A stretch of 64,000 nucleotides of DNA from Candidatus Aenigmatarchaeota archaeon (GCA_016198755.1 JACQIB010000005.1:191271-255270), one strand, 5' to 3'; shown: positions 21,513 to 42,837, counted from the first letter of the stretch. Notes: generated by a model not told the origin, from the letters alone. Made by a program: numbers and translations.

Positions 21513-21785
21513 GGCAGGGTATGCCCCTGGTTGATGGGAAAGACCTGATAGGTAACCCAACTACCCCTCTCCACACAGCTTCCCCACAAACGCTTCCACA
21601 AAGGTTTATGCTTGCTTCCTTCCGGACCTGGGCAGGTTCGCCCCTGCAGCTGCTCTGCAGGACCATGCTTCTCAGAGGAAACAGCTGGACCTTGTCAGAC
21701 CTTATCACCGCCCAAAGACTCAGGCTCCGCCATAATGTCCGTTTGCGGTTACAGGTTAGGACAAGCTCCCCGGCCATCCCCTGCC
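21513..21785 (-). ncRNA. ffs: Signal recognition particle (7S) RNA
   Basis: Helix 8 CCCAGGTCCGGAAGGAAGCA; terminal helix GGCAGGG/CCCTGCC; TATA ~23 nt upstream. Confidence 0.93.
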
Positions 21786-37491: not shown

Positions 37492-38073
37492 ATGGCATTT
37501 GTTGCGCAAAACTTTGATATGTTGCTGGGAACAGCTGGTTTTAGCGAAACCCTTCTGAAAAACCACTTTACTTTGTATCAGGGATATGTAACAAATTCTA
37601 ACAAACTTTCAGATATTCTTGCTGTAATGGCAAAGGAAGGGAAGACTGGACCAGAGTTTGCTGAGTTAAAAAGAAGGTTTGGTTGGGAGTTTAATGGGAT
37701 GAGATTACACGAGCTTTATTTTGGGAATATGGTTAAAGAAGGAAAGGCTGTTAATCAGAACTCTGCTTTGTACAAGAAAATTATTGAAGATTTTGGCTCA
37801 TGGGAAAACTGGGAAAAGGATTTTAAATCTCTTGGAGCAATGAGGGGAATAGGCTGGGCAATACTTTATTATGACCCGCAGAGCAAAAGGCTTTTTAATG
37901 TCTGGATAAATGAGCATGATGTTGGGCACTTGTCTGGAGCTGTTCCCTTGCTGGTGCTGGATATTTTCGAGCATGCCTATATGCTGGATTATGGGTTAAA
38001 AAGAACTGACTATATTGAAGCTTTTTTTAAGGCTGTTGACTGGGCTGTTGTAGAGAGAAGGTTTTTAGAGTGA
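37492..38073 (+). CDS. sod: Fe/Mn superoxide dismutase
   Basis: HFTLYQGYV, LHELYF, DIFEHAY. Confidence 0.93.
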   Translation: MAFVAQNFDMLLGTAGFSETLLKNHFTLYQGYVTNSNKLSDILAVMAKEGKTGPEFAELKRRFGWEFNGMRLHELYFGNMVKEGKAVNQNSALYKKIIEDFGSWENWEKDFKSLGAMRGIGWAILYYDPQSKRLFNVWINEHDVGHLSGAVPLLVLDIFEHAYMLDYGLKRTDYIEAFFKAVDWAVVERRFLE

Positions 38074-38077
38074 TTTG

Positions 38078-38641
38078 ATGGGTTTGGAATATGGCAGCCC
38101 GGCAGCCAGAAAATTTATCACAACTATTGGGCTGATAACTTCTGATGGTCCATGGGGGCCGAACATAATGGCTGCAGAGTGGACTCACCATATCTCTTAT
38201 AACCCGGGATTAATTGCTGTTTTTCCAAGGCCCTCGAGAGCCACTACAGAAAACATAAAGAAAACAAAAGTTTTTGGGGTTAACATTGCTGCTATAGATC
38301 AAAATGTTATTTCCAGCATAGCTGGAGGGAACACTGGGAAAGAAATTGATAAAATTGCTGTCCTGAAGGAGTTGGGGTTTGAATTCTACCCTGCCAAAAA
38401 AATAAAGGTTTTAATGGTTAAAGGAGCTGCAGCCAATATAGAGTGCAAGCTTGTTAAAACAGTAAAGCTGGGGGACCACACAATGTTTGTTGGGAAAGCT
38501 TTAGAAGTTTCCTCTATAGAGAAAGAGTCCATAGCCTACAATGGAGGCAAATACTATAGGCTTGGTGAAAAGATAGAGAAGCCCCCGCAAGAGGTGCTGG
38601 ACAAGATTGCAATAACTCTTGAGAGGCATAAAAAGAAATAG
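38078..38641 (+). CDS. Flavin reductase-like protein
   Basis: NIMAAEW, IECK, GDHTMFVG. Confidence 0.88.
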   Translation: MGLEYGSPAARKFITTIGLITSDGPWGPNIMAAEWTHHISYNPGLIAVFPRPSRATTENIKKTKVFGVNIAAIDQNVISSIAGGNTGKEIDKIAVLKELGFEFYPAKKIKVLMVKGAAANIECKLVKTVKLGDHTMFVGKALEVSSIEKESIAYNGGKYYRLGEKIEKPPQEVLDKIAITLERHKKK

Positions 38642-38823
38642 AAACGGTGTATATGATACGCGAGGGTATGAGGCAGGCTGAGGGGCCTTTGGATGAAACT
38701 CCAACTGTAGGGGTTGGAGCGACTTCTGCTTAATTAGGCTTTAACGGATTTTTAGAAGGGTTTGATATTGTTTCTATATAGCTTCGGAAAGTATTATAAG
38801 CTGGTATAAGTAATTTTGTTTAG

Positions 38824-42558: not shown

Positions 42559-42744
42559 TGGTGCGGGGGAAGAGAGTTTCACTGCGCTTTGAACTCTTGA
42601 AGGGCCTGCGCCCACAGGATTTCTTTCATTGCGCGGCTTTCGGCCGCAGCTCTGAACTTAGGGCATGCCTTAAGTGTCGCAGACCGTTGTCTCCTGCGCA
42701 TTTTCTGCTCGCGCGCAGCGCGCACCGAGCTTTGCTACCCCCGC
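42559..42744 (-). tRNA. tRNA-Leu(TAA) with four introns (~42705-42724 D-loop; 42676-42692 at 30/31; 42621-42668 at 37/38; 42576-42587 at 59/60)
   Basis: GCGGGGG/CCCCCGC acceptor, A73, CCA, long variable arm; splicing gives ~89 nt; conserved position after rpoD. Confidence 0.85.
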
Positions 42745-42837
42745 ACAATTTAGTTGTACAGAACATTATATATAGTCTTCTCTTGAGCATGTTGCTGGAA
42801 GGGAGAGGTTGGAAGGAGATACGCAGTTTCTCCCCCA

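Follow-up and report, generated by a model that had tools for sequence, protein, structure and literature searches.

The DNA at one locus of a DPANN archaeon, a member of Candidatus Aenigmatarchaeota, raises the question of whether a single tRNA-Leu(UAA) gene can be interrupted by four or even five introns and still specify a canonical tRNA, and what might keep the largest of these introns in place. The locus lies in a window of 64,000 nt (the whole stretch of DNA analysed, G000:C3:191271-255270), within an assembly of 890,842 bases in 6 contigs that has 40% G+C and is 89% complete. ARAGORN and Rfam (gathering threshold), applied to the raw 64-kb window, return zero tRNAs, this locus included, and a permissive Rfam scan of the locus itself gives noise only, in the form of two matches at E about 4. 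Above threshold, the window yields a single Rfam family, the archaeal SRP RNA (RF01857, 114 bits), on the minus strand at 21513-21785.

The gene, its mature product and its introns

A first-pass annotation had assigned the locus to a tRNA-Leu(TAA) gene with four, possibly five, introns; the gene and four introns are borne out and the coordinates proved exact, the gene being on the minus strand (Table 1). Its 5' end is a G+C-rich acceptor strand of 7 nt, and its 3' end consists of the complementary strand followed by an A discriminator and an encoded CCA. Removal of inserts of 20, 17, 48 and 12 nt leaves a product of 89 nt, CCA included, which ARAGORN calls tRNA-Leu(taa). This product was compared with the features of a class II tRNA-Leu, namely a long variable arm, a 3-bp D stem with a 13-22 mismatch, A73 and a leucine anticodon, and it displays a 16-nt variable region with a 4-bp stem, three of four pairs in the D stem, an A discriminator and the anticodon TAA. 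A strict cloverleaf score (maximum 26), which counts all stems together with U8, A14, GG, U33, R37, the T-loop bases and G53-C61, reaches 25 for this product; this is the best value at the locus and equals that of the other class II tRNAs of the genome, background loci scoring 22 or less. The inserts account for 97 of the 186 nt, in keeping with the earlier remark that more than half of the gene is intron. Upstream lies the TATA-box-like element TATATATAA, which we take to be the promoter element of the gene, on the strength of the position rule for archaeal promoters.

Table 1. Positions of the features discussed in the text; coordinates refer to the window unless a contig of the genome (G000) is named, and precursor coordinate 1 is window position 42744.
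Feature	Coordinates	Strand	Description
tRNA-Leu(UAA) gene	42559..42744	minus (42744 down to 42559)	186 nt; four introns separating five exons; encoded CCA at 42559-42561
TATA-box-like element TATATATAA	42766..42774	minus	22-30 nt upstream of position 1 (-30 to -22)
Exon 1	42725..42744	minus	tRNA 1-19: acceptor 5' strand, D stem 5' strand, D loop to G18 G19
Intron 1	42705..42724 (precursor 21-40)	minus	20 nt; D loop, 19/20; type HBh', helix 4/4, h 0, h' 5
Exon 2	42693..42704	minus	remaining D loop, D stem 3' strand, position 26, anticodon stem 27-30
Intron 2	42676..42692 (precursor 53-69)	minus	17 nt; 30/31; helix CGCA/TGCG 4/4, h 1, h' 3
Exon 3	42669..42675	minus	7 nt: position 31 and anticodon loop 32-37, CTTAAG
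Intron 3	42621..42668 (precursor 77-124)	minus	48 nt; canonical 37/38; helix 3/4 (A.A mismatch), h' 3
Antisense element CCTAAG	42657..42662	minus	in intron 3; 5/6 bases complementary to anticodon loop 32-37; contains TAAG of the first-pass annotation
Box D'-like CAGA	42651..42654	minus	separated from the antisense element by 2 nt; the nucleotide five positions upstream is complementary to U34
G+C-rich hairpin	42631..42650	minus	between D'-like and C'-like elements; MFE fold; would be the canonical stem of a K-turn
Box C'-like AAUGAAAG	42623..42630	minus	RUGA core; last four bases are the 3' strand of the splicing helix
Exon 4	42588..42620	minus	position 38, anticodon stem 3' strand, 16-nt variable arm, T stem 5' strand, T loop 54-59
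Intron 4	42576..42587 (precursor 158-169)	minus	12 nt; T loop, 59/60; type hBH, helix TTCA/TGAA 4/4, h 5 (T stem), h' 1
Exon 5	42559..42575	minus	position 60, T stem 3' strand, acceptor 3' strand, A73, CCA
Solo 35-nt copy	42799..42833	minus (strand of the gene)	without T-arm flanks; about 55 nt upstream of the Leu(UAA) gene, upstream of the promoter
35-nt core copies in T-loop introns	C6:104154-104188; C5:115672-115706; C5:136425-136459; C5:140482-140515; C2:242410-242444; C1:55883-55917; C1:69186-69220		in tRNAs Arg-CCU, Leu-GAG, Lys-UUU, Tyr, Ser-CGA, Val-GAC and Gly-CCC (tRNAs and coordinates listed separately)
Two tandem EndA paralogues	C1 ~37750-38800 (locus L047 1462-2521)	minus	PF01974 and PF02778, two matches each
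RtcB	C5:42797-45628	plus	PF01139, E 1e-141; single open frame, 1010 aa

The inserts were judged by bulge-helix-bulge (BHB) geometry, in which a 4-bp central helix lies between two 3-nt bulges and the cut falls after the second bulge base. By this measure, and with the orthologues described below, four predicted BHB introns are supported at 19/20, 30/31, 37/38 and 59/60. Three of the four junctions (introns 1, 2 and 4) have the full motif, and intron 3 belongs to the relaxed class with three of four central pairs; at least one of the flanking helices h and h' is found at every intron. The motif settles the register of the D-loop insert, previously left ambiguous at 18-20 nt, at 20 nt. The 17-nt insert at 30/31 with its CGCA/TGCG helix and the 12-nt insert at 59/60 with TTCA/TGAA are both present as they had been described, each with all four pairs, and the 48-nt insert at 37/38 is upheld by its geometry, the restored cloverleaf and the orthologues, its helix having three pairs of four.

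Placing introns of these four lengths at 567 positions within the precursor yields the full motif, with a 4/4 helix plus a flank of 3 or longer, three times, and these are exactly three of the predicted introns; random placements in the genome give it in 531 of 200,000 cases (0.27%). Relaxed BHB rules admit 140 candidates within the 186 nt, so the motif alone is weak evidence for any parse. The intron mode of ARAGORN, with the fewest introns as criterion, returned a false two-intron 'His' tRNA and accepts 76 alternative parses, and the four-intron parse therefore rests on the strict cloverleaf score and on the orthologues.

For the latter, the spliced mature sequence was aligned to loci from 40 relatives, and 16 Leu(UAA) genes, the window gene included, were compared. 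Orthologues from relatives in Aenigmatarchaeota (DPANN) that lack one or another of the introns confirm the joints. The 5' half of one of them (L032) is uninterrupted and matches the predicted joints of exons 1, 2 and 3 except for two D-loop bases, and the T loops or arms of four others (L020, L025, L041 and L029) are uninterrupted, with compensatory changes in the T stem. Removal of the four inserts thus restores a canonical tRNA whose joints are those of genes without the respective introns. Among the 16 genes, the 37/38 intron is present and clearly homologous in all; the 30/31 site is occupied in eight (counting the window gene), with a conserved 3' end; the T-loop intron occurs in nine, with lengths from 11 to 104 nt; and at least one D-arm intron is found in eight. 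A gene from another family of the order (L034, genome G025) is occupied at the same four sites as the window gene, with a cloverleaf score of 25.

Two further orthologues apparently carry five introns, as judged from their sequences. L018 (G003:C44), from the same family as the window genome, is a Leu(UAA) gene of 296 nt with five inserts, two of them in the D arm, and L026 (G021:C36) is a Leu(UAA) gene of 305 nt whose five inserts include a pair in the D arm and a variable-arm insert. The automatic search left both unresolved, and their parses come from reading the sequences followed by boundary refinement, after which the products score 26 and 25, respectively, with the anticodon TAA. Full motifs are found in both at the 30/31, 37/38 and T-loop or variable-arm inserts; the register is uncertain for the first two inserts of L026, which are those of its D arm, and for the second D-arm insert of L018.

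tRNA census and splicing enzymes

Rfam (RF00005) or ARAGORN finds 16 tRNAs of the genome directly, 15 of which have an encoded CCA. A census was anchored on an encoded CCA, a 7-bp acceptor stem with at least four G-C pairs and U8, after which motif-bounded inserts were removed; 41 loci then score 23 or more. Another device, the use of G+C islands as an RNA-gene finder, proved useless, with 482 islands in this genome of 40% G+C. The UAA anticodon occurs once among the 41 loci, a Leu-type acceptor end is present at three loci only (UAA, GAG and CAA), and a whole-gene DNA search of the genome detected no second anticodon arm. The check for another Leu(TAA) gene, which had been proposed with the original description, thus found none in the 89%-complete assembly by census, acceptor-end and whole-gene DNA searches; a divergent second gene could have been missed, because the census criteria (acceptor, U8, CCA) are strict and the assembly is incomplete to that extent. 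Several expected anticodons, such as Glu, Gln-UUG and Ser-GGA, did not appear in the census.

By the same census, five genes have no intron, 11 have one, 20 have two, four have three and one has four, the last being the Leu(UAA) gene, the only four-intron gene found in this genome. These figures are minimal estimates, and three loci with A34 anticodons are probably mis-resolved; they amount to about 67 introns in 41 genes (about 1.6 per gene), with 36 of the 41 genes interrupted and 25 having two or more introns. Standard tools therefore miss the Leu(UAA) gene and most tRNAs of this genome (16 found directly, about 41 after intron removal), and other DPANN genomes reported to lack tRNAs may hide them behind introns.

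A gene more than half of which is inserted sequence, with one mismatched splicing helix and invisible to standard tools, might be a decaying pseudogene or an artefact of assembly. This is very improbable given that all stems of the product are intact at a score of 25/26, that it is the sole Leu(UAA) gene found, that the interrupted design is retained in orthologues of several families, and that introns are common in this genome. The DNA of the locus is moreover identical in contigs of all four groundwater metagenome runs, with no intron-less variant among them; these runs are not independent support, because they belong to one study, which may be the source of the assembly. The sequencing runs in which the locus was found include no RNA run.

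The genome encodes both the endonuclease and the RtcB ligase expected of an organism with BHB introns. Two EndA paralogues stand in tandem next to a tRNA gene. The longer one (178 aa) is closest to NEQ205, the catalytic subunit of N. equitans (E 9e-29), retains the Tyr and His residues and bears an insert rich in Lys immediately ahead of the catalytic His, and the 173-aa paralogue has Glu at the His position. Aligned with NEQ205 and M. jannaschii EndA, the 178-aa protein has Ala and the 173-aa protein Ser where the M. jannaschii enzyme has its catalytic Lys156. These sequences point to a two-subunit enzyme of the Nanoarchaeum type, which would be the assembly state of the pair. Two-subunit EndA is described, in the pertinent passages of PMC5829648, as a kind known to cut relaxed motifs. 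As a separate observation, the RtcB frame aligns to Pfam positions 1-50 and 48-426 in two parts about 1.4 kb apart, which suggests a large insertion such as an intein.

In the proposed course of events, a precursor of 186 nt would be transcribed from the gene, the two-subunit EndA would cut in the 3-nt bulges, and RtcB would join the five exons. Intron 2 splits the anticodon stem, which is also the outer helix of intron 3, and holds base 31 in its 3' bulge, so that this outer helix is complete only after intron 2 is gone: h has 1 pair in the primary transcript and 7 once precursor positions 53-69 are removed. Intron 2 would therefore probably leave before intron 3. Sequential splicing of close or neighbouring introns has been described, according to the sections of PMC8450103 concerned with it.

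One intron at 37/38 and the module within it

The possible fifth intron of the first-pass annotation lay in the 48-nt insert, which was proposed to be a 14-nt and a 34-nt unit stacked at 37/38 and removed in turn. The pairing behind this proposal is present: TAAG (precursor 85-88) is perfectly complementary to CTTA of the anticodon loop (71-74). With positions 91-124 gone first, the 14-nt unit would also have a perfect hBH motif, and the sequential removal of adjacent introns has the precedent just mentioned (PMC8450103). All two-step removals giving the same product were enumerated and scored, and the weaker step of the best split reaches 11 against 14 for one-step removal, a value of 11 being common by chance in this sequence. 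The 34-nt unit (precursor 91-124) has no motif with three or more central pairs, and in the primary transcript both flanking helices of the 14-nt unit are missing. A fifth, stacked intron is thus unsupported, because no two-step split has two usable motifs.

The comparison of orthologues offers another account of the TAAG. The loop hexamer CTTAAG (32-37) is followed at once by the intron, which runs for 4-13 nt to an internal CTTAAG and continues with 2 nt, NNGA, a variable hairpin or loop, RUGA with a few further bases, and the 3' splice site. The internal CTTAAG, the reverse complement of the palindromic loop hexamer, is present in all 15 orthologues read, and exactly 2 nt and NNGA follow it in 13 of the 15, as read by eye. 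The window copy has one substitution (CCTAAG) at unchanged spacing. NNGA is mostly UUGA or CUGA in the relatives and CAGA in the window gene; the C'-like box ranges from AUGAAAG in the window gene up to GUGAUGA in L023. The spacing of antisense, 2 nt and NNGA has no role in the splicing motif, and a splice site explains neither this fixed arrangement nor its co-variation with other anticodons (below). Two introns stacked at 37/38 are accordingly a very unlikely reading; on the sequence evidence, the 48-nt insert is a single intron, and TAAG is part of a conserved intron module.

The same module is found in Leu(CAA), one tRNA-Met, Trp and Arg(UCU) of this genome, where the antisense element changes with the anticodon loop: each of the four has an exact complement of positions 32-37, then 2 nt, NNGA, a short hairpin and RUGA. 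The exact pattern occurs in four of 41 cognate precursors (Arg-UCU, Met, Trp and Leu-CAA), as against five of 1638 non-cognate combinations of loop and precursor; allowing one mismatch adds Leu(UAA) and Gln(CUG) and raises the background to as many as 96 of 1638. Across 41 genomes of the order, the pattern matches in 36 for Met, 32 for Leu(UAA), 31 for Arg(UCU), 15 for Trp and 13 for Leu(CAA), counts that are upper bounds because reversed-pattern controls find matches in several genomes too; for the palindromic Leu pattern the number is about 13 of 41. The genomes are related and hence not independent, and most of the matches listed have short loops and a tRNA-like context. The exact patterns miss the Leu(UAA) and Trp genes of the window genome itself, because of a mismatch in Leu and a longer gap in Trp.

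The arrangement resembles one half of a box C/D guide RNA. A stem lies between its two GA dinucleotides, the 3' GA being preceded by a bulge of 3 nt, and this layout fits a box D'/C' pair in K-turn or K-loop form. Five nucleotides upstream of NNGA stands the base that faces position 34, in each of the five tRNAs of this genome. By the box sequences and the fifth-nucleotide (N+5) rule of box C/D guides (PMC2584109), this would select the wobble nucleotide, a site of guided Cm34 methylation in tRNA-Trp and tRNA-Met of other archaea (PMC2584109, PMC7668247); C34 of Leu(CAA) is also a predicted guide target in P. furiosus (PMC7668247). Fibrillarin, Nop5 and L7Ae are all encoded in the genome. The most likely role of the module, by analogy with these systems, would be that of a guide aimed at nucleotide 34. 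The antisense element and the K-turn-like D'/C' pair would recruit L7Ae, Nop5 and fibrillarin before splicing, and these would 2'-O-methylate U34, as happens with the intron of euryarchaeal pre-tRNA-Trp. The literature consulted yielded no documentation of Um34 in archaeal Leu(UAA). The guide and splicing conformations would be mutually exclusive, because the C'-like element overlaps the splicing helix, its final four bases doubling as the 3' strand of that helix.

The module is not a full member of the box C/D guide family. A complete set would comprise C (RUGAUGA), D' (CUGA), C' (UGAUGA) and D (CUGA), of which only D'-like and C'-like elements are present; terminal C and D boxes were not seen when the intron and its flanks were read by eye. 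Known guides have 8-12 nt of antisense (PMC2584109) ending directly upstream of D or D'; the duplex here has 6-7 bp in the relatives and five of six pairs in the window gene, and it ends 2 nt before NNGA. Both boxes are degenerate in this gene, with CAGA against CUGA for D' and UGAAAG against UGAUGA for C', so that the window copy would be weak as a guide.

These departures give a non-catalytic role a serious claim. In such a role, the module would be real and would serve folding or protection, whether by masking the anticodon, by acting with L7Ae as a chaperone or by timing the formation of the splicing motif. That only half of a guide is present, that its duplex is shorter than those of known guides, and that the antisense and splicing helices compete for the same loop bases all favour it. 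Against it stand the spacing that puts the fifth nucleotide opposite 34 in each of the five tRNAs, the status of that position as a guided site in Trp and Met and a predicted one in Leu(CAA) of other archaea, and the presence of fibrillarin and Nop5; it is judged rather unlikely, the guide role being preferred. Taken as a whole, it is held with high confidence that this is the sole detectable Leu(UAA) gene, that it has four BHB introns which would be spliced by EndA and RtcB, and that the 48-nt insert is one intron with a probable guide for U34.

Known systems and the spread of introns

Whether four introns are exceptional depends on the literature taken as the standard. The statement that three per tRNA is the usual reported maximum holds for two reviews, whose passages on the subject give three introns per archaeal tRNA gene (PMC4033280, 2014; PMC8450103, 2021), and is exceeded in a preprint of October 2026, which reports up to five intervening sequences in one gene of Asgard archaea (10.64898/2026.10.13.758758). 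The word DPANN occurs nowhere in the text of that preprint, and searches of the open-access literature returned no report of a four-intron tRNA gene design in DPANN, nor of intron-borne guides for position 34 outside Trp in this group. What is new here is the presence of four introns in a lineage not previously described with such genes, together with a canonical intron that carries a guide-like module. The gene exceeds the reviewed maximum of three and carries the Asgard finding over to a distant lineage, one with a reduced genome and an endonuclease resembling that of Nanoarchaeum.

A close parallel in design comes from the Thermoproteales (Sugahara et al. 2008, per PMC4033280; PMC8450103), for which the relevant parts of these reviews describe short BHB introns at the D loop, anticodon stem and T loop beside that at 37/38, as found here. 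In both, one intron must leave before the motif of its neighbour is complete, similar introns occur across different tRNAs, and the endonuclease has, or here would have, two subunits. The maximum given for Thermoproteales is three introns per gene, compared with four in the window gene and apparently five in two of its orthologues; the host here is a DPANN archaeon with a genome below 1 Mb (about 0.9 Mb) and an EndA whose closest counterpart is the N. equitans enzyme, in contrast to the crenarchaeal-type EndA of Thermoproteales. For Pyrobaculum calidifontis, 71 introns in 46 tRNA genes are cited in the same account (PMC8450103).

Asgard archaea are also a match in intron load. In the portions of PMC11291895 and 10.64898/2026.10.13.758758 that treat tRNA genes, most of these genes are interrupted and standard annotation misses many of the D-arm insertions, as is the case here. 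A majority of tRNA genes in three Asgard genomes have several introns (PMC11291895, 2024), and the average is about 1.5-2.4 introns per gene, with 2.2 in some families (10.64898/2026.10.13.758758, PMC11291895), compared with about 1.6 here; most interrupted genes have more than one intron in both groups. Asgard archaea constitute a different superphylum, and no intron-borne antisense module is described in those portions of the Asgard work. A eukaryotic tRNA gene is likewise interrupted by BHB introns at 37/38, within the D arm and within the T loop, with an order of removal established by RT-PCR; it has three introns rather than four and lacks one at 30/31.

For the module, the reference system is the box C/D intron of archaeal pre-tRNA-Trp (Clouet d'Orval et al. 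2001 and Singh et al. 2004, per PMC2584109), in which an antisense element in the 37/38 intron also lies upstream of a D'-type box, position 34 is addressed by the fifth-nucleotide rule, and the guide and splicing conformations exclude each other (PMC2584109). The Trp intron has four boxes and two guides (Cm34 and Um39) and acts before splicing, as opposed to the D'/C'-like half with a single antisense of 6-7 nt found here (PMC2584109). Beyond Trp, the module here is also found in Arg(UCU), Met and two Leu tRNAs (UAA and CAA). For Met, PMC2584109 describes the guide as 'always exonic', a separate RNA, among the genomes of its survey; it is intronic in most of those searched here. The combination of antisense and K-turn-like module offers a testable reason for the persistence of 37/38 introns and would widen the pre-tRNA-Trp paradigm to Leu, Met and Arg.

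A broader reading, which falls a little short of even probability, holds that the canonical introns of five tRNAs are kept because each would provide in cis a minimal half box C/D guide that methylates the tRNA's own wobble position ahead of splicing, that these genes gained up to four or five BHB introns, some of them from a family that spread through T loops, and that a DPANN lineage would be a third independent centre of intron proliferation beside Thermoproteales and Asgard archaea. If true, it would supply a functional reason for the retention of canonical tRNA introns.

Material for studying how introns spread is provided by a group of T-loop introns in the same genome. A 35-nt core, with copies 91-97% identical, lies within the 59/60 introns (about 45-55 nt) of seven tRNA genes, and a solo copy lies upstream of the Leu(UAA) gene itself (Table 1). 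From their similarity, these introns look like one family dispersed among different tRNAs. In the Leu(UAA) gene, the T-loop intron of 12 nt ends in GTGAAAC, much as the family ends in CTGAAAA, and may be a member shortened by deletion.
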